A stretch of DNA of 30,800 bases from Polyangiales bacterium. GTDB taxonomy: Bacteria > Myxococcota_A > Polyangia > Polyangiales > Polyangiaceae. Made by a program: the position numbers and the translations under genes. Positions 11,585-22,581 of this stretch are shown in pieces (positions within the stretch are counted from its first letter, which is position 1; every line of letters begins with the position of its first letter). The notes beneath the pieces are model-generated. The model did no database searches. It was not told the DNA's origin and saw only the letters and a program-made list of their open reading frames with translations. The DNA lies in assembly GCA_038231275.1 (NCBI GenBank), contig JBBRLQ010000053.1, positions 1-30,800 on the forward strand, in the 5' to 3' direction.

Positions 11585-12709
11585 TCAGCTGCGGCGATAC
11601 GCGCGCACGCGAGGGCATTCGGGATCGGGGCCGTGCACGTCGTCCACGAAGCGTGAGACGACCTTGCAGCCACCCTTGCACACGGGGCGAAGCGTGCAGG
11701 ATGCACATGGTTCGAGGGGCGCGGCCGCGTAGGCGCGCCAGCGTTCGAGCTCGGCGTCGTCGGCGGGCCCAGCGAAGCTGCACGGCGCGGTCTTCCCGTC
11801 GACACGCACGGCGCCGAGGCGATCGCCGGCCTCGCACCCGAAGACGCCGAACCGCGCGAACGCGTCGGGCGCGAGCGACGCGTCGCCGGATAGGAACGGG
11901 ACGAGCGCACAATCGACGCGCACGTGGAAGCCCCCGTCGTCGCAGCGGTGCTCGGCGACGATCGCGCGGAGGGTCGGGACAAACTCGTCCACCTGCGCGG
12001 GCGAGAGGCGTCGCGCCAAGTAGTCGAGCGTCGCGGCGCGTCCGGCGGGCTTGTAGCGGAGCAGCTGGGCCTCGCGCGCCCCGAGCGCGCGTGCGCGGCG
12101 CACCGTATCGGCCAGGTGCGGGAAGCTCTGGCGCGTGAGGACGACGTTGACGCCGACCGTGACGCCGGCGCGCGCGAGCCGCTCGATCGCGGCCTCGGCC
12201 GCCCGCGCGCCGTCGAAGCCGCGCACGCTCTCGTACGCTTCGCCCGCGCCGTCGTAGCTCACGTTCACCTGCGCGAAGGCGCCGAGGCGAGCGACGCGCG
12301 CGTCACTCAGGCCGAGCCCGCTCGTTGTGAGGACGGGCGTGAGGCCACGTGCGCGTGCCGCCTCCGCGATCTCGCCGAGATCGTCGCGCGTGATCGGCTC
12401 GCCGCCGCCGAACGCGACCGTGAAGACGCCATCCGCCGCGAGCGCATCGAGGCGCGCGAGGAGCGTGGACTGCGGAGGCTCCTCGCCGTCGGGCCGCGCG
12501 TCGAGGTAGCACCCTTCGCACCCTGCCGCGCACTTGCCGGTGACCGCGAGGTGCACCTCCACCGGTGCGCTCGCGGCGATCGCCGCGCGCGACCAGACGT
12601 CTCCGCCGTCGAGCCCCGCTGCGCGCGCACCATCATGATCGAGCGCGACGAGCGCCGCCATCTCTTCGAGCTTCACCCAGGCGCCCCACGCCTCGTAGCG
12701 GACGATCAC
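11585..12709 (-). CDS. Radical SAM protein with C-terminal SPASM-type domain (PqqE/MftC-like subgroup)
   Basis: CAAGCEGC radical SAM motif, FGGGEP, VSYDG...VRG, GCEAG...DG...PCSF and CxxCx5CxGGC...DPEC auxiliary-cluster cysteines; GTG start with GGAGG SD overlaps the upstream stop (GTGA). Confidence 0.92.
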   Translation of the reverse strand: MIVRYEAWGAWVKLEEMAALVALDHDGARAAGLDGGDVWSRAAIAASAPVEVHLAVTGKCAAGCEGCYLDARPDGEEPPQSTLLARLDALAADGVFTVAFGGGEPITRDDLGEIAEAARARGLTPVLTTSGLGLSDARVARLGAFAQVNVSYDGAGEAYESVRGFDGARAAEAAIERLARAGVTVGVNVVLTRQSFPHLADTVRRARALGAREAQLLRYKPAGRAATLDYLARRLSPAQVDEFVPTLRAIVAEHRCDDGGFHVRVDCALVPFLSGDASLAPDAFARFGVFGCEAGDRLGAVRVDGKTAPCSFAGPADDAELERWRAYAAAPLEPCASCTLRPVCKGGCKVVSRFVDDVHGPDPECPRVRAYRRS

Positions 12710-12975
12710 GGCTCGCCTCCCGTCGCGTCGTCTTCAGCGGCGCTCGTGCGGTCGCTCGCCTTCGACGTGCCCGAGCCCCGTGAAGGGACGACGACCACGC
12801 GCTTCTCGCGGGCGATGGCGGCCGCGATCGCGGTGAGGAGGACGCCCCCGACGACCGCGCTCGCGAAGAGCGTGTCGACGACGCTCCCGATGCTCGAGCA
12901 GTTGGCGCCGTGCCCGATGCGGACGACGCGGAGGCCGCGCGCGATCTCGTCTTCCTTCTTCACAGGCTCCGTCAT
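12706..12975 (-). CDS. Small (89 aa) single-pass membrane protein with RIGHGANCSSIGS motif; candidate radical SAM partner or substrate
   Basis: ATG 12975 overlaps the upstream TGA (ATGA) and its TGA overlaps the rSAM GTG. Sequence MTEPVKKEDEIARGLRVVRIGHGANCSSIGSVVDTLFASAVVGGVLLTAIAAAIAREKR... Confidence 0.75.
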   Translation of the reverse strand: MTEPVKKEDEIARGLRVVRIGHGANCSSIGSVVDTLFASAVVGGVLLTAIAAAIAREKRVVVVPSRGSGTSKASDRTSAAEDDATGGEP

Positions 12976-14051
12976 AAGCCGAACCCCTTCAGGTACTCCA
13001 CGTCGATCCACTCGAGGACGAGGAACGCGGCGGCGACCACCGACGCTCCGCACACCAACGTACGCGCCGCGCGCGCTGCCGGACGCGGGGACCCGACGGC
13101 GGCCCACGCGCGCGCGCCGAACGTGATCGGCAACGCGGCGACGCCGAACGCAACAAACGGCGCGCTCGTCCCACGCTCGTAGAACGTCGCGAGGAGCGCC
13201 CCAGTGATCGCGACATAAGCAAAAAAGCCTGCGATGAGCTTGTAGGATGCACGTATCGCGTTCGAGGCCGCGCCGATCTCGCCCCTCGTCCGGGCGCGCG
13301 CGAGCACGATGGCCACGGCCGCGAAGGTGACGGCGAGGACGCCGAGCGACGTGCGATGCAGCGCGCGCCGCCGAACGAGCGTACGGACGCGCGCGGTCAG
13401 CGACGGCTCCGCGATGGCGGCGTGACGCGTCACGGTGTCGCGCGCGTCGTCGAGGCGCCCGAGGTCCAGCTCCACGTCCACGAGCATGTCGAGGGCCAGC
13501 CGCGCGGTGAGCGGATCGGCGCTTGGATCCGCCGCGACCTTCTCGAGGAGCGGGACGGCGCGCGCGGGCTGATGAAGGCGTCCCGCGTAGGCCTCCGCCA
13601 CGAGGAGGCGCGCCTCGCCACGGACCTGCCCCGGCGGGAACCCATCGGCGCGCGCGGCCAGATCGTCCAGCGCCTGCGGATCGTCCGCCGCGGCGCGATC
13701 GGCGCGCATCACCTCGAGCGCCGTGAACGGAGCGAAGTCCCCCTCGGCGTGCGACCGCAACGTCCGCGCGCGCGCCTGCGCTCTCGGAACGAACCCCGCC
13801 GACGGCGTCGCCTTGACCGCGCGCTCGTACTCGTCGGCCGCCTTCGCGAACGCGCGGCGCTGATCGTCCTCCTCGGCGGCGTGGAACAGCTGCGCGCCAT
13901 CGTCCGTCTGCGCGTGCGCGCGCGGCACGACGAGCGCGAGCAGGACCGGCACGACGCGCACGACGCGCACGACGCGCACGACGAAGGCGAGGGGAGGGGC
14001 CCAGGCACGCGGCACCGCGGGACGTTCACACGCAAGGCCCGCCTTGTCCAC
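12972..14051 (-). CDS. Hypothetical protein: signal peptide, TPR-like helical domain and four C-terminal transmembrane helices
   Basis: AHA-Q signal cleavage site; Ala-rich helical repeats (AFAKAADEYERAVKATP, AVPLLEKVAADP); four hydrophobic segments at the C-terminus. Start uncertain (GTG 14015 is plausible). Confidence 0.7.
   Translation of the reverse strand: MDKAGLACERPAVPRAWAPPLAFVVRVVRVVRVVPVLLALVVPRAHAQTDDGAQLFHAAEEDDQRRAFAKAADEYERAVKATPSAGFVPRAQARARTLRSHAEGDFAPFTALEVMRADRAAADDPQALDDLAARADGFPPGQVRGEARLLVAEAYAGRLHQPARAVPLLEKVAADPSADPLTARLALDMLVDVELDLGRLDDARDTVTRHAAIAEPSLTARVRTLVRRRALHRTSLGVLAVTFAAVAIVLARARTRGEIGAASNAIRASYKLIAGFFAYVAITGALLATFYERGTSAPFVAFGVAALPITFGARAWAAVGSPRPAARAARTLVCGASVVAAAFLVLEWIDVEYLKGFGL
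13949..13984. repeat. Four tandem 9-bp repeats GCACGACGC (VVR repeats in the signal region on the minus strand)
   Basis: GCACGACGC x3 plus GCACGACGA. Confidence 0.8.
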
Positions 14052-14103
14052 GGTCGCGGTCGGGACTTCGGCGCCGGGCGCGCGCGTTCTTCAATCGCGT
14101 GGT

Positions 14104-15966
14104 ATGCCCGGAAAGCCGATGAGAGGTGGTCCGTCGCTCCCGCTGCTCGTCTTGCTCGCCTCGTCGACCGGGTGCGCGAAGGCATGCAAGAACGACCACC
14201 CATACGTGCCCTATTCGATCGGTGACGGCGACGCGCCGGACGGATGGGAGGACGGCGCGACGACCCAGGTCGTCGAAGACTCCGGCGCGATGGAGATCGC
14301 CGCGACCGCCGCGCCGGCCGGGGCGACGCGCTGGACGCTCGAAGGCCTCGATCTCGCCGCGCCGCCGGATCGGGTGTTCGTGCTGGGGCTGGCGCGCGAC
14401 CTCGACGGTGACGGCGCGAAGGACGCGCTCGCGATCGTCCGCGCGACGAAGGACGAGGCGGCCCCCGACGAGACGATCTTCTTCAAAGGAACCGCGCGCG
14501 GCCTCGACGCGCCCGCGAGCGTCGCGACGGGTCCGGGTCCGGCGCCTGCGGTGGACGCCGGCTGCGCACGCGTCGCGCGCCTCGCACAAATTGGCCGGCG
14601 GTCTGCGGTCGTCGAGCTCGGCGCGGCGTGCGCGACGCTCGCGACGTCGCGGTGGCTCGGCGTCCTCTCGTTCGATCGCGGCGTGCGAACGCGCTTCGCG
14701 ACGACGATCGTGGATCCCGCCGAATCACCGCACCTCACGGTCGACGCGGACGGCGCCGATCGCGACGGCGATGGGATCGACGACGTCACCCTCCGCGTCT
14801 CGATCGACGCGCCGAACACGCCGTTCGAGCCGATGCCGCGCGCAACCACGAAGATCGTTTGGTTCGATCGGCCCGCCGGCCTGAGCCGCGAGCGCGACGA
14901 GCCGGACGCGTCGCTTCGCGCCCTCGCGCAGGCCGCCGCCACGCGCGCGGCGAAGGCGAAGGACGCGCCGCAGGTCCCGGGCGCCGTGCATCAGATCCGC
15001 GCGCTTTACGGCGCCGTGTGCGCGGAGGGGGGCGCCGCGCGGCTCGTGAAGATCACTGTCGGCACCGGCGGCGTCGCGTGCGGCCCGAGCCGTGCGCTCG
15101 AGGAAGCGGGCTTTGCGCTCGCTCGCGCGCACGCGACGATGGGCGATCCGGCGCGCGCGGTCTGGGCGATCGATCGCGCGCAGCAGCCTCCCGCGTCCAA
15201 GACGCCCGCGCGCGTCGCCGAGGCGTACGCGTGGATCGCGCAGGCGGCCCCGATCGCGCTCGCCAAGCAGCTCCGCGCAATCGCGGCGGTGCCGCAGATC
15301 GAGCGCGGCGCGGCGCCGTCGTGGGGCGCGCTCGCCTTCGAGCCGAACGGCAAGCTCCTCATCCGAACGGCGGCCGGCGTCGCGCGCGTCGATCCGGTCG
15401 CGGGCGACGAGGTGGACGCGCCCGATGCGACGCCGTGGCGCACGCACGTCGTCTCGCCCGACGGGACGCTTCGTTGGCTCTCGGTCACGACCGCGTGCGA
15501 CGGCGGACCTCTCCGCGCGTCGTTCGCGTCGACCGGTCCGGCGCTCGACGCCGACGCGCGCGATGTCCTTCTCCCCGTGGCGACGCCGCTCGGAACCAAA
15601 TGCGCCGCGGGCCGTGGCGAGGCCGCGCACGCTGTGCCGCTCGCGTGGGGTCCGCGCGGCCTCGAGGCGCTCGTCGCCGGCGAGCCGGTTCTCTTCACCG
15701 CCGATCTGTCGCGCGCGTCGATCGCGGCGGCGGCGCTCGAACAAGCCGTCACGCCCGGCGCGCCGCGCTCCCCATCCGGCAAGGTCACCGTCGTGCCCAC
15801 CTCGCTCGGCATCGTCGTTCGCTCCCCCAAGGCGCGCATGCTCAAGGCGAAGGAGCTCGACGGCGGCTACGGAGAGCTCCAGAGCTGCACCGTGAGCGAC
15901 GACGCGACGATGGTGGCGTGCGTCCGCGGCGGCCGCGCGTTCGTCGGGACCTGGGACCCGCCGTGA
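14104..15966 (+). CDS. Hypothetical lipoprotein with two DxDGDG Ca-binding (FG-GAP-like) motifs
   Basis: Long ORF with high GC3; lipobox-like LLVLLASSTG-C; DLDGDGAKD and DRDGDGIDD. Start is ATG 14104 or 14119. Confidence 0.7.
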   Translation: MPGKPMRGGPSLPLLVLLASSTGCAKACKNDHPYVPYSIGDGDAPDGWEDGATTQVVEDSGAMEIAATAAPAGATRWTLEGLDLAAPPDRVFVLGLARDLDGDGAKDALAIVRATKDEAAPDETIFFKGTARGLDAPASVATGPGPAPAVDAGCARVARLAQIGRRSAVVELGAACATLATSRWLGVLSFDRGVRTRFATTIVDPAESPHLTVDADGADRDGDGIDDVTLRVSIDAPNTPFEPMPRATTKIVWFDRPAGLSRERDEPDASLRALAQAAATRAAKAKDAPQVPGAVHQIRALYGAVCAEGGAARLVKITVGTGGVACGPSRALEEAGFALARAHATMGDPARAVWAIDRAQQPPASKTPARVAEAYAWIAQAAPIALAKQLRAIAAVPQIERGAAPSWGALAFEPNGKLLIRTAAGVARVDPVAGDEVDAPDATPWRTHVVSPDGTLRWLSVTTACDGGPLRASFASTGPALDADARDVLLPVATPLGTKCAAGRGEAAHAVPLAWGPRGLEALVAGEPVLFTADLSRASIAAAALEQAVTPGAPRSPSGKVTVVPTSLGIVVRSPKARMLKAKELDGGYGELQSCTVSDDATMVACVRGGRAFVGTWDPP

Positions 15967-16504: not shown

Positions 16505-17230
16505 ATGCACCTGCCTGGCCGACTGCGCTCGACGACCCTGGGCGATCTGCTCGGCACGCTCCACCGCGAAGGCGCCACTGGCACGATGGAGCTCGCCGAG
16601 TTGCGCGGACGTGTCCATCGCGTGCACATGCTCCGCGGATACGTCGCGGCCGTCGAGCTCGACGGCGCGAGCGCGTCCCTCGCCGAGATGCTCCGCCGCC
16701 GCCAGGTCATCGGTGAAGAGACGCTGCGCCGCTCGCTCCTCCGCGCGATGTCGTCGCGTCGTCTCCACGGTGAGGTCCTCGTCCGTGACTTTCGCCTCTC
16801 GCCTTCGGTCGTCGACGACGCCCTGCGCGCGCAGCTCCAGAACCGCCTCGAGATCTTGGACCAGCTCACCGACGCGCAGATCTGTTTCCGTGTTGCCGTC
16901 CGGGCGCCGCGTGGCGCGCTCACCGACGTCCCCCTTCGCCCGAGCGAGTTCCTCGGCGGGAAGCGACGCGCGCGTGATCGCACCCACGACACACGAGACT
17001 CGAGCCAGGCCCGCTCCGCCTCCGCTTCCACCCCGCGTCCTCGCGTCGAGGCGTGCCGTGTGCTCGGCATCGCCGACAGCGCCGACGCCACCGAAGTGAA
17101 GCGCGCCTACCGCCGCCTCGTCCACGCGACGCACCCCGATCTCCACCCTGGCGCGACGCCCGACGAGAAGCGCACGCTCGCCGCACGCTTTCAGCAGATC
17201 ACCGAAGCGTACCGTCACCTCGTGGCGTGA
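16505..17230 (+). CDS. DnaJ-domain protein with N-terminal DUF4388-like domain
   Basis: GRLRSTTLGDLLGTLHREGATGTMEL N-terminus; C-terminal J domain VLGI...VKRAYRRLV...HPD...FQQITEAY. Confidence 0.88.
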   Translation: MHLPGRLRSTTLGDLLGTLHREGATGTMELAELRGRVHRVHMLRGYVAAVELDGASASLAEMLRRRQVIGEETLRRSLLRAMSSRRLHGEVLVRDFRLSPSVVDDALRAQLQNRLEILDQLTDAQICFRVAVRAPRGALTDVPLRPSEFLGGKRRARDRTHDTRDSSQARSASASTPRPRVEACRVLGIADSADATEVKRAYRRLVHATHPDLHPGATPDEKRTLAARFQQITEAYRHLVA

Positions 17231-19451: not shown

Positions 19452-19530
19452 CCTACACGCCCGACCCTTTTCGCGTCTCCGCGCGCGGGTTTGCTTGGCG
19501 CAGGTCGCTTCGGCCTTCATGGTTACGGCC

Positions 19531-20892
19531 ATGCGGAAGCCGGATCTCGTCTTCTCCTTCGTCGTCTTCTTTTGCGCGATCCTCGCCGCGTGCAGCGGCG
19601 CCACGTCGAGCGTCTCGACGAGCGGCGGACCCGGCGACGCGGACGGCGGTGTGTCGACGGACGGCAGCGGCCCCGGTGACGACGCCGGCGGACCGAGCGG
19701 GCCGAGCGGCTTGCCGTGCGACGTCGACAAGATCGTGACCGCCAACTGCCAGAGCTGCCACGCGCGCTCGCCGGTGTACGGCGCGCCGATGCCGCTCGTC
19801 ACGTGGAGCGATCTCCAGGCGCCTGCGAAGAGCGACGCGTCGAAGAAGGTCTACCAGCTCGTCGGCACGCGCATCCACGACGACGCGAAGCCGATGCCGC
19901 AGCCGCCGAACGTCCGCCTCTCCGCCGCCGACACCGCGACGCTCGACGCGTGGATCGCGCAAGGCGCGCCGCAGTCGACGACCGGCTGCACCACGCCTCC
20001 GCCGCCCCCGAGCGACGGCGGCATCGTCCCGACGTCGTGCACCCCCGACGAGCACATGCGCCCGACGGCCGCGTGGTCGATGCCGCAAGGCACGAGCGAT
20101 CAGTACACCTGCTACCTCTTCGACGTCCCGCGCACGACCAAGCGTCACGTCGTGGCCCTCGCGCCGGTCATCGGCAACCCGAAGATCGTTCACCACCTCC
20201 TCTTGTTCCAGGCAACGACCGGCGTCACCGGCGTCACGACGTCACCGTCCCCCTGCTCGTCGGGCGGCGGCAGTGGATGGCGCATCGTGTACGGCTGGGC
20301 CCCCGGCGGCAAGCCGATGGAGATGCCTCCCGAGGCTGGATTTCCCGAGGATCCGGGCACGACGCATTACGTCGTGCAGGTCCACTACAACAACATCAAC
20401 CACCTCGCGGGCGAGACCGATACGAGCGGCTTCGATCTGTGCACGACCGACCAGCTCCGCGCGAACGACGCGGATGTGATCGCGTTCGGCACGATGAGCA
20501 TCAACATCCCGCCGCACGGCACGCTCGACACGACGTGCTCGGTCGACATCCAGGCCACCTTCGAAGGCGCGCACGTCTTCGCGGCCTCGCCGCACATGCA
20601 CAAGCTCGGCACGAAGATCATCACCACGCTGAACCCCAAGGCCGGTGGCTCGGCGGATCTCGGGAAGAAGGATCCGTTCGACTTCCAGTCGCAGTACTGG
20701 GTGCCGGTGAGTCAGATCCTCCACACCGGTGACACGGTGAAGACGCGCTGCGTGTGGAACAACACGACGGACACCGCGGTAACCTTCGGGCAAAATACAG
20801 AGAACGAGATGTGTTACTCGTTCACGATGTACTACCCGCGCGTGCAGCTGCCGTCGTGGGCGGCGCCGGCGTACTTGTCGAAGTGCCAGTAG
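19531..20892 (+). CDS. Lipoprotein: c-type cytochrome domain fused to a copper type II (PHM/DBH-like) monooxygenase
   Basis: Lipobox LAA-C; NCQSCH heme motif with downstream MPQPP; CuH ligands VHHL and QVHY; CuM ligands PHMH and EMC. Confidence 0.85.
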   Translation: MRKPDLVFSFVVFFCAILAACSGATSSVSTSGGPGDADGGVSTDGSGPGDDAGGPSGPSGLPCDVDKIVTANCQSCHARSPVYGAPMPLVTWSDLQAPAKSDASKKVYQLVGTRIHDDAKPMPQPPNVRLSAADTATLDAWIAQGAPQSTTGCTTPPPPPSDGGIVPTSCTPDEHMRPTAAWSMPQGTSDQYTCYLFDVPRTTKRHVVALAPVIGNPKIVHHLLLFQATTGVTGVTTSPSPCSSGGGSGWRIVYGWAPGGKPMEMPPEAGFPEDPGTTHYVVQVHYNNINHLAGETDTSGFDLCTTDQLRANDADVIAFGTMSINIPPHGTLDTTCSVDIQATFEGAHVFAASPHMHKLGTKIITTLNPKAGGSADLGKKDPFDFQSQYWVPVSQILHTGDTVKTRCVWNNTTDTAVTFGQNTENEMCYSFTMYYPRVQLPSWAAPAYLSKCQ

Positions 20893-21150: not shown

Positions 21151-21177
21151 GGCCCAGTGGATGCAAATGGCTCTGTC

Positions 21178-22581
21178 ATGCGCATCACCAACCCCCCGGT
21201 TCGTCTCCCCCACGTCGCTCACCTCTTCGTCGCGCTCGGCGTGTTCGTTGGCGCGTGCGCGAACGCCGACGGCACGGGCACGCTCGGCGGACAGGGCTCC
21301 GACAACGGAGCCTCCGCGGGAACGATCGCCGGCGGGGACGGAGGAAGCGGCGGCGGGGGAGGAGGAGGCGCATCGAGCAGCGGCGGCGGCGGCGGCGCGA
21401 GCACCGGCCTTCCGTGCAACGTCAGCGCGATCCTCCAGAAGAACTGCGCGACGTGCCACGGCGCGACGCCCTCGTTCGGCGCGCCGAATCCGCTCGTGAC
21501 TTACGCAGACCTCACGAAGAGCGGAGCCGACGGCAAGGAGTACGCGACGGTGCAGAAGCGCATGCACGCGACGCAAGGAGTGATGCCGCCGTCCCCGTCG
21601 TCGCCGCTCTCGGCCGCCGATCTCAAGACATTCGACGACTGGGTCGCGGCCGGCGCGCCGCCCTCCGACGCCGCGTGCAGTACCGACGGTGCGGACGCAG
21701 GCCCGGCGGTGAAGCCGCTGTCATGCACGCCCGATCAGTTCATCCGGTCGACCACCGCGTTCACGATGCCGCCGAACACGCCGGACGTGTACATGTGCTA
21801 CGGCTTCGACGTCCCGACCACGGCCAAGCGCCACGTCGTCGGCTTCGGCCCGAAGATCGACAACCCGAAGATTGTCCACCATCTCCTGCTATTTCAGGCC
21901 GATTCGAGCTACGGCACCACGCCGCAGCAGTGCTCGGCGACGACGAGCGCGCAGTGGCGCCTCGTGACCGGATGGGCGCCGGGCGGGCCGAACATGGAGA
22001 CGCCGCCCGAGGCCGGCTTCCCGGAGGAGGGGACGACGCACTGGATCCTCCAGGTCCACTACAACAACGCATCGGGCCAGAACGCCGGCCAAGTCGACAA
22101 GAGCGGCTACGATCTGTGCACGACCGACAAGCTCCGCCCGAACGACGCCGCGGTGATGGCGCCCGGCACGCTGAAGATGACGCTGCCGCCGCGCGCGACG
22201 ACCGACATCACGTGCAACTGGAGCCCGATGCTCATCGGCAAGGTGCACTTCTTCGGCGCCACGCCGCACATGCACAAGCTCGGCACCAAGATGAGCACCT
22301 ACGTGACGCACAACGGCGTGAAGACGAAGGTCGTGGACCAGCAGAACTTCGACTTCAACTACCAGAGCGCGTACCCGGCGAGCGTCGACCTGCAAGACGG
22401 CGACACCGTGAGCACGCGCTGCGCCTGGAACAACACGACCGATCAGGCCGTGCAGTGGGGCGAGAATACGGGCGACGAGATGTGCTTCAACTTCATCCCG
22501 TACTACCCCAAGATCAACTCGGGCCTCTGGTCGTGGACCACGCCGAGCATCCTCGCGAGCTGCACGCCGACGGCGCCGTGA
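21178..22581 (+). CDS. Paralogous lipoprotein: c-type cytochrome domain plus copper type II monooxygenase
   Basis: Lipobox VGA-C; NCATCH with MPPSP; VHHLL, QVHYNN, PHMHKLG, GDEMC; aligns end to end with the upstream paralog. Confidence 0.85.
   Translation: MRITNPPVRLPHVAHLFVALGVFVGACANADGTGTLGGQGSDNGASAGTIAGGDGGSGGGGGGGASSSGGGGGASTGLPCNVSAILQKNCATCHGATPSFGAPNPLVTYADLTKSGADGKEYATVQKRMHATQGVMPPSPSSPLSAADLKTFDDWVAAGAPPSDAACSTDGADAGPAVKPLSCTPDQFIRSTTAFTMPPNTPDVYMCYGFDVPTTAKRHVVGFGPKIDNPKIVHHLLLFQADSSYGTTPQQCSATTSAQWRLVTGWAPGGPNMETPPEAGFPEEGTTHWILQVHYNNASGQNAGQVDKSGYDLCTTDKLRPNDAAVMAPGTLKMTLPPRATTDITCNWSPMLIGKVHFFGATPHMHKLGTKMSTYVTHNGVKTKVVDQQNFDFNYQSAYPASVDLQDGDTVSTRCAWNNTTDQAVQWGENTGDEMCFNFIPYYPKINSGLWSWTTPSILASCTPTAP

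Follow-up and report, generated by a model that had tools for sequence, protein, structure and literature searches.

Known radical SAM maturases and the A-B-C locus

The described systems that stand nearest to the one reported here are maturases of peptides and proteins that use radical S-adenosylmethionine (SAM) chemistry and carry a SPASM domain. Our system is encoded in 30,800 nucleotides of DNA from a Polyangiales bacterium (contig JBBRLQ010000053.1; "the window" hereafter means this whole stretch, whose G+C content is 70%). Three open reading frames (ORFs), A, B and C, follow one another there on the minus strand with gene-like codon statistics, as read directly from that strand. C is a radical SAM/SPASM enzyme, B a peptide with a short conserved motif ahead of a hydrophobic helix, and A a larger helical protein. 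B is probably the dedicated peptide substrate of C, a reading that draws on the order of the genes, their conservation and co-occurrence, the natural fusions of B to C and the class of the enzyme. The genes and their junctions are:

11585..12709, minus strand: gene C, radical SAM/SPASM enzyme of 374 residues, GTG start
12706..12975, minus strand: gene B, 89 residues, ATG start at 12975; strand, motif, hydrophobic helix and a variable acidic, Pro-rich tail
12972..14051, minus strand: gene A, 359 residues; putative signal peptide, then TPR-like repeats built of short helices over about 160 residues, followed by four long helices at 216-349
12972..12975, minus strand: ATGA overlap of the A stop and the B ATG, read from the sequence
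12706..12709, minus strand: GTGA overlap of the B stop (TGA) and the C GTG, read from the sequence

By its sole Pfam match, PF04055 (50.7 bits against a gathering cut-off of 29.5), C is a member of the radical SAM family, and its cysteines are those of a SPASM enzyme:

12509..12532, minus strand: CxxxCxxC, C60-x3-C64-x2-C67, the radical SAM cluster site, with the cysteines kept in 80 of 80 orthologues
11615..11911, minus strand: eight auxiliary-cluster cysteines (C267, C292, C310, C335, C338, C344, C348, C365) in the SPASM region, recognized by their conservation in orthologues

The SPASM pattern is complete (C292-x12-G305-x4-C310, C335-x2-C338-x5-C344-x3-C348 and C365, plus C267), and all 11 cysteines, three and eight, are retained in 79-80 of the 80 orthologues. 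The Pfam SPASM model gives no match to the window's protein C at E <= 0.01; in the orthologue at locus L079, TIGR04085 (SPASM) scores 35.3 against a cut-off of 27. These readings bear out a first-pass annotation of the window, which had described three overlapping minus-strand genes joined by ATGA and GTGA, a middle gene of 89 residues with a motif at 12883-12921 ahead of a hydrophobic helix, and a last gene with a CxxxCxxC core and SPASM-type cysteines; all of its coordinates agree with the sequence.

C belongs to no curated NCBIfam radical SAM family, because all its scores fall short of the cut-offs: MftC (TIGR03962) 82.5 (cut-off 265), GeoRSP 80.6 (400), NirJ 64.8 (515), PqqE (TIGR02109) 62.6 (381), AhbC 59.8 (650), AhbD 58.9 (500) and Tes 35.5. 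No anSME model is present among the best 25 of 41 NCBIfam matches. The first-pass annotation had taken membership in a family with a known small-molecule substrate, such as those of heme d1 or Ahb synthesis, as a mark against its reading; NirJ, AhbC and AhbD are all far below threshold. Among solved structures, a profile search with C ranks PqqE first (6c8v, 1.5e-26), followed by SuiB (3.9e-18), SkfB (2.8e-16) and tetraether synthase (7tol, 3.5e-13), with BlsE, CteB and anSME (1.2e-10) also found, and a Foldseek search with the model of a natural B-C fusion returns SkfB (6efn, 8.4e-15), SuiB (1.3e-13), CteB (5why, 3.8e-12), PqqE (4.2e-12) and anSME (5.4e-10). Since sequence and fold searches both rank peptide and protein maturases highest, these, and not small-molecule enzymes, are the nearest solved relatives of C.

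Each group of relatives resembles the locus in some respects and departs from it in others. Anaerobic sulfatase-maturating enzymes (anSME; AtsB, anSMEcpe) are, like C, radical SAM/SPASM proteins with two auxiliary clusters fully ligated by eight cysteines; they act on a protein and not on a free RiPP, a peptide made by the ribosome and modified after translation, and the fold of the fusion model matches theirs (4k37/4k39, E ~5e-10). They take Cys-type and Ser-type substrates within one enzyme family, just as B comes in a Cys and a Ser flavour beside C, and they convert the Ser or Cys to formylglycine (PMC10288494). However, the sequence match of C to anSME is limited to the radical SAM core (44 bits), the sulfatase signature C/S-x-P/A-x-R does not occur in B (N-C-S-S-I-G-S; in the Ser type, N-S-S-S-L-G), and B is an 89-residue, helix-bearing peptide and not a sulfatase; moreover, C has an extra N-terminal docking sheet, and fusions of the two partners exist. 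PqqE and MftC are the best relatives by sequence, and they too have a dedicated small peptide encoded next door, with housekeeping-type conservation and an invariant target motif. Yet C scores far below the cut-offs of both and has no RRE protein (RRE, the recognition element of RiPPs) of the PqqD or MftB type, while the target motif of B is not a terminal Glu...Tyr or Val-Tyr and is accompanied by a hydrophobic helix.

The thioether-forming SPASM/Twitch maturases (SkfB, CteB, AlbA, NxxcB, CrpC) provide the top fold matches and have Cys as the key residue; CrpC exemplifies that enzymes of this type also modify whole proteins (PMC13692751). In contrast to this group, there is only one Cys in B, and most members of the wider family have Ser instead; no full RRE domain is detected in C. 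In thioether maturases a site on auxiliary cluster I is usually left open, whereas C holds all eight auxiliary cysteines. A last point of comparison is offered by the borosins (OphMA-type and split bacterial forms), whose family has enzyme and substrate in one chain in some members and split in others, as is the case for B and C; but borosins use a SAM methyltransferase and not a radical SAM enzyme, and their peptide is C-terminal where B is N-terminal. B-C is most likely a radical SAM/SPASM peptide or protein maturase set apart from all of these by a helix-tethered substrate, natural fusions, Cys and Ser types and conserved membrane partners. Our literature search found no paper on the A-B-C system among those listed, judged by their titles and abstract openings, and none joining radical SAM, SPASM and Myxococcota; the Cys- and Ser-type motif strings retrieved no relevant paper, the sole match being an unrelated proteomics study. 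The text of PMC10288494 does not mention Myxococcota, Polyangia, Labilithrix or transmembrane, and its supplementary set of 15,108 RRE-associated radical SAM proteins may or may not include this family.

Conservation, co-occurrence and fusion of B and C

B starts with MTEPVKKEDEIARGLRVVRIGHGANCSSIGSVVDTLF, and its motif is followed by a hydrophobic stretch and then by the acidic, Pro-rich tail:

12883..12921, minus strand: conserved motif R19-S31, RIGHGANCSSIGS, with R19, G21, G23, A24, N25, C26, S27, S28 and G30 invariant in alignment A1
12808..12882, minus strand: hydrophobic helix of B, about residues 32-56, located by 19-residue Kyte-Doolittle mean

Homologues are numerous. We found 426 at E <= 0.01 in a database clustered at 90%, and 424 clusters (50% identity) at E <= 0.001, 284 of them reaching 1e-10, when a profile was run exhaustively against 1.84 billion representatives. 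Beyond the motif, invariance over the 31 aligned sequences extends to D34, T35, L36 and F37, and 264 homologues give the Cys-type pattern R-x-G-[HPR]-[GS]-A-N-C-S-S-[IV]-G-S, the Cys being present in 263 and replaced by Ser in one. At the DNA level, 57 distinct versions of the 13 motif codons vary more at position 3 (0.26) than at positions 1 (0.12) and 2 (0.10), and the invariant residues are encoded by several synonymous codons. The small ORF is under protein-level, strongly purifying selection on its motif, in contrast with the variable cores of RiPPs. No Pfam or NCBIfam family matches B, Ser-type B likewise has no match above cut-off, and the source names shown for B homologues all read "hypothetical protein".

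The best 19-residue Kyte-Doolittle mean of the helix has a median of 2.27 over 261 stand-alone homologues, and stand-alone B looks, by its sequence, like a single-pass membrane protein. Its orientation is not settled by charge, the median net charge being -1 on the N-terminal side and 0 over the 15 residues after the helix.

In other families, orthologues of C are preceded by peptides of the form [KR]-x-G-[LYFMV]-N-P-N-S-S-S-[LVI]-G, again followed by a hydrophobic helix. This second flavour, G-x-N-P-N-S-S-S-x-G, has Ser in place of Cys and shares with the first the core G-x-x-x-N-[C/S]-S-x-x-G. It counts at least 3113 clusters (90% identity) at E <= 0.001 among 8000 candidates scored, with every source name shown again "hypothetical protein". 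Both flavours adjoin orthologous C. A quick maximum-likelihood tree of 80 C cores (midpoint-rooted for drawing only) groups the Cys-type enzymes in a single clade (SH-aLRT 96) nested within a grade of the Ser type, and one change explains the labels. Only two enzyme columns separate the types at >= 90% in the 80 sequences, Q215 in the Cys type against E in the Ser type and A268 against S, and both lie within the set of predicted B contacts (61 of 327 core residues).

Loci that hold a relative of C number 39, all of them Polyangiaceae, Labilithrix or unclassified Myxococcales, and in 36 of these B is immediately upstream of C; one of the exceptions is a locus that begins 80 bp before C, and the other two (L034, L036) are without B upstream. 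As adjacency alone is weak, 401 Myxococcota genomes were therefore sampled. Profile A1 finds B in 46 of them, and C lies within 1.5 kb of B in 27 of 30 loci from this sample, some of them from families in which identity in C is down to 40-47% and A can no longer be detected. The three exceptions keep C elsewhere: 2.5 kb off, behind A and a lipoprotein gene (G355), on another contig (G059) or about 2 Mb away (G230). The Ser-type profile finds B in 62 genomes, which brings the two profiles together to 69, and C (E <= 1e-40) is present in 74 of the 401, among them 69/69 of the B-positive genomes; relatives are not independent, so that a Fisher p-value overstates the case. Five genomes have C alone by these searches, of which G056 shows a fused B by eye and G242 and G397 have C cut at a contig end. 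The first-pass annotation had proposed conservation of the small ORF and its motif beside the radical SAM gene as a test, and the pairing held in the near and distant samples alike; the R-x-G-x-x-x-N-S-S-S motif that it associated with uncharacterised proteins near radical SAM genes turned up as the Ser-type flavour of the B family.

The two partners are also found in a single polypeptide, which goes beyond what the first-pass annotation had proposed, as does the passing complex prediction described below. Motif and CxxxCxxC share one open frame in 12 of the 30 loci of the phylum sample, and the 80 C sequences contain 13 distinct fused B-C sequences after removal of duplicates, with motif and helix preceding the radical SAM core. 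From the start of a fused ORF to its motif there are 8-12 residues, as in MKQQIHEVRLGHAANCS and MIRRIRLGHAPNCS. On the C tree, fusion requires three changes: two distant clades (of 4 and 8 rows) and one row in the window's own family, L018, which is the same 452-residue fusion as L044. A second fusion from a close relative, L048, lies outside the tree; in both L044 and L048 no more than a few residues lie between the end of the B helix and residue 1 of C.

Three genomes (G012, G048 and G111) have two C matches and two Ser-type B matches each, and at least one of the B matches in G012 and in G048 stands well away from every C, a pattern that suggests duplicated, partly unlinked B-C pairs.

Predicted binding, proposed chemistry and alternative roles for B

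The binding mode was modelled with C (alignment A4), residues 1-62 of B (alignment A1), three 4Fe-4S clusters and SAM. The complex scored 0.89 in each of three runs, against 0.00 for the best of three controls, with >= 96% of contacts shared between runs and a predicted local distance difference test score (pLDDT) of at least 83 for the partner; among solved complexes 116 of 157 reach the score mark, and among mismatched pairs 2 of 215, rates that are only rough here given our own alignments and the inclusion of ligands. The contacts of least error pair B 14-19 with C 19-24, and they define one further feature:

12575..12709, minus strand: small beta domain at the N-terminus of C (residues 1-45), where the B strand is predicted to dock, from model contacts

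B 13-39 is predicted to contact E51, H53, Y68, A99-G102, Q147, N149, N188, E213, Q215, R218, K220, R264-A268 and C310-F312 of C, among which E51, G101, G102, N188, R218, K220, D266, C267 and C310 are invariant in 80 of 80 orthologues. B 57-62 contacts C 1-5 in the model, which is the junction of the natural fusions L044 and L048. An AlphaFold2 (AF2) model of another natural fusion, L070 (pLDDT 91.5, predicted template modelling score 0.91), sets an N-terminal strand (4-10, pLDDT 85) beside enzyme strands 45-50, 56-61 and 64-70; its motif segment has a pLDDT of 69, and its hydrophobic part forms short helices (pLDDT 89) packed on the enzyme.

These models suggest a course of events in which a strand of B (about residues 14-19) would pair with the edge of the small N-terminal beta sheet of C and so guide the motif that follows, G-x-x-x-N-[C/S]-S-x-x-G, to a place within the barrel next to SAM and the clusters. 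The 5'-deoxyadenosyl radical would then abstract a hydrogen at or next to Cys26, or the Ser of the other flavour, with one of two outcomes, a (thio)ether crosslink or a formylglycine-type aldehyde such as anSME makes from Cys or Ser. By analogy, the alternation of Cys and Ser, the fully ligated auxiliary clusters and the Glu found at position 215 only in the Ser type fit an anSME-like abstraction at C-beta leading to formylglycine. The data are just as compatible with a crosslink, a thioether in the Cys type or an ether in the Ser type, and the residue actually targeted could instead be the invariant N25 or S27. The product would not be freed as a peptide but would remain on the hydrophobic helix of B, or on the enzyme itself in the fusions, and modified B would probably work with the membrane proteins A and D (a fourth small protein, described below) as a housekeeping module of the envelope, and not as an antibiotic-type RiPP.

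Several points weigh against taking B as a substrate. In the fusions its helix stands between the motif and a cytosolic Fe-S enzyme, so that a membrane-spanning helix would keep the motif away from the active site; the helix of fused forms is less hydrophobic (1.5-2.16, against the stand-alone median) and yet near the transmembrane range. For the same reason the "membrane-tethered" of the first-pass annotation stands only as regards the hydrophobic helix that follows the motif, and the tethering itself is uncertain. A substrate fused to its own enzyme permits one turnover only. The Pfam scan of C yields no RRE or PqqD domain beyond PF04055. The adjacency in the 39 close loci counts for little on its own, because their whole neighbourhood (HrpB, MurB, lipoprotein) is syntenic, and B and C are unlinked in G059 and G230 and in families f25, f29 and f32, the last three with Ser-type B. 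The two correlated enzyme columns are not independent evidence, because the switch between Cys and Ser occurred once on the tree. As for the complex, its pass may partly reflect likeness, because solved radical SAM-peptide complexes exist (SuiB-SuiA, CteB, anSME-peptide), and the model was read as lists of residue contacts and not as atomic distances, so that no atom can be assigned as facing SAM.

Some of the same observations would be expected if B were instead a permanent subunit or membrane anchor of the enzyme, whose motif plugs, gates or completes the active site while the true substrate lies elsewhere; its Cys or Ser could then act, for instance, as a hydrogen donor or a regulatory pseudo-substrate. 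Subunits are expected to be found fused, as in the 13 distinct sequences here, the hydrophobic helix is likewise conserved, the extreme conservation of the motif leaves no variable "core", and the complex prediction indicates binding and not turnover. Against this, C needs no cluster ligand from B, since it supplies all eight auxiliary cysteines itself, the presence of Ser for Cys in thousands of members is a poor fit to a thiyl or ligand role, and the peptides bound by the relatives of C are substrates. We consider a subunit role unlikely. It is quite improbable that C modifies a membrane lipid or another small molecule, with B, A and D merely holding it at the membrane. Three of the four components are indeed membrane proteins, and a tetraether lipid synthase is among the relatives of C (7tol and Tes, above); but Tes, NirJ, Ahb and MoaA all lie far below their cut-offs and peptide maturases are better relatives, the motif of B fills the barrel in the predicted model, and an invariant G-x-x-x-N-[C/S]-S-x-x-G beside the docking strand is hard to explain in an anchor.

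A very improbable explanation is that B is the precursor of an exported RiPP, with a short leader and a core cleaved by a protease encoded elsewhere, even though a radical SAM/SPASM gene adjoining a small peptide gene is the arrangement one would look for, and the coexistence of split and fused forms recalls the borosins, in which the precursor is fused to its own methyltransferase. The classical features of a RiPP cluster (an RRE or PqqD-like domain, a leader protease, an exporter near the precursor) are not found at the locus. Protein maturation is favoured over an exported RiPP because the motif is near-invariant over hundreds of clusters, where RiPP cores are usually variable, because the locus occurs once, lies among housekeeping genes and keeps its synteny across a family, and because no protease or exporter is encoded nearby; in addition, the conserved part of B runs directly into its hydrophobic helix. 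The first-pass annotation had already noted that neither a protease nor an ABC exporter is close by, and the neighbours of A-B-C in the window (HrpB, MurB, EF-P, HflX and others) indeed include neither.

With B as the probable substrate of C, the system represents a large uncharacterised family (the 424 Cys-type and at least 3113 Ser-type clusters given above), of which A, B and D lie outside Pfam and NCBIfam. For radical SAM enzymology it offers a genetically encoded enzyme-substrate pair, single-polypeptide fusions and a natural switch between Cys and Ser with two co-varying active-site residues, and it is because these are available that the target residue and the chemistry are directly testable; a cultured host exists in Labilithrix luteola DSM 27648 (locus L003). 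A predicted envelope-associated function in Polyangia and other myxobacteria would follow. We also put forward, tentatively and as a doubtful proposition, that B-C constitutes a new class of radical SAM protein maturation, in which a formylglycine-type aldehyde or a new crosslink would be installed on the invariant N-[C/S]-S site of a helix-tethered, enzyme-bound or enzyme-fused peptide and would serve the A-B-C-D envelope module as a self-modified, protein-derived reactive group or cofactor. Were this true, a four-component envelope module (A, B, C, D) would be present in about 1/6 of the sampled Myxococcota genomes, this would be the first natural family of radical SAM enzyme-substrate fusions, and formylglycine, if that is the product, would be the first outside the sulfatase/phosphonatase fold.

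Partner proteins A and D and the genomic setting

A homologue of A lies upstream of B in 30 of the 39 related loci, and A-like genes precede B also in G066, G355, G062 and G003. A has no Pfam or NCBIfam family match. Its AF2 model (pLDDT 89.5) has at the N-terminus a helix that is uncertain, after which come ten short ones (51-209) and the four long helices already listed. The first-pass annotation had called it a TPR protein, and this holds in part: the model is TPR-like, the neighbours in the Atlas are TPR clusters (0.94, 0.93) and the best PDB matches by Foldseek are TPR proteins; but these matches have E >= 0.016, with none at E <= 0.001, and Pfam TPR matches appear only in orthologues, below cut-off. 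Inside the putative signal peptide of A, at about 13950-13985 of the window (minus strand), a 9-bp unit, GTCGTGCGC, is present in about three tandem copies and encodes VVR-VVR-VVR; because of this repeat, the true start codon of A is uncertain.

D is encoded by a fourth small gene (94-118 residues); three helices are predicted for it, a loop carries the motif D-P-x-x-V...[FY]-[FYS]-W-R, and no Pfam or NCBIfam model matches it above cut-off. It usually follows C or B in distant genomes, and most of the D matches whose coordinates were compared lie directly beside C. A 4-sequence profile finds it in 46 of the 401 genomes, 42 of which have C and 37 B. In the window's own genome D lies outside the operon, on contig C38:65577-65825 (minus strand; E 6e-9; the same as L081:8539-8847), as the only match in a search of that genome. 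This copy has 102 residues and the loop motif NPATIVSQVRVAMFWR, and is found between the genes of a LuxR-type response regulator and of a membrane protein with Pro/Gln-rich repeats.

Other small or membrane-associated proteins occur at related loci. At the Ser-type locus of G245, a 92-residue ORF with three hydrophobic segments (L082:4137-4415, minus strand) overlaps the start of B and occupies the usual place of A; it may be a short form of the membrane part of A, or of D. In G355, the gene that stands between C and A-B-D encodes a lipoprotein of 476 residues (L076:9077-10507, minus strand), which by the look of its sequence may be a metallophosphoesterase.

The A-B-C genes are flanked downstream by a convergent murB and upstream by a divergent gene for a 640-residue predicted lipoprotein (14044-15966, plus strand) with no Pfam family, which is syntenic in 28 of the 39 related loci. 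Further products of the neighbourhood are HrpB, a protein with DUF4388 and a C-terminal DnaJ domain (16505-17230, plus strand; syntenic with the operon in 21 of the 39 loci), a BamD-like TPR protein, EF-P and HflX. In the closest relatives, synteny covers not only A but also HrpB, MurB, the lipoprotein and the DnaJ-domain gene. The adjacency of murB was considered as a link to the cell wall and rejected: the block is syntenic in close relatives and is not retained in distant ones. Farther along the window, an ORF at 19495-20892 (plus strand) scores 80.7 and 70.1 bits in its matches to the two domains of the PHM/DBH-like copper type II ascorbate-dependent monooxygenases, enzymes known chiefly from animals, and a second ORF at 21157-22581 (plus strand) resembles it in size and composition.

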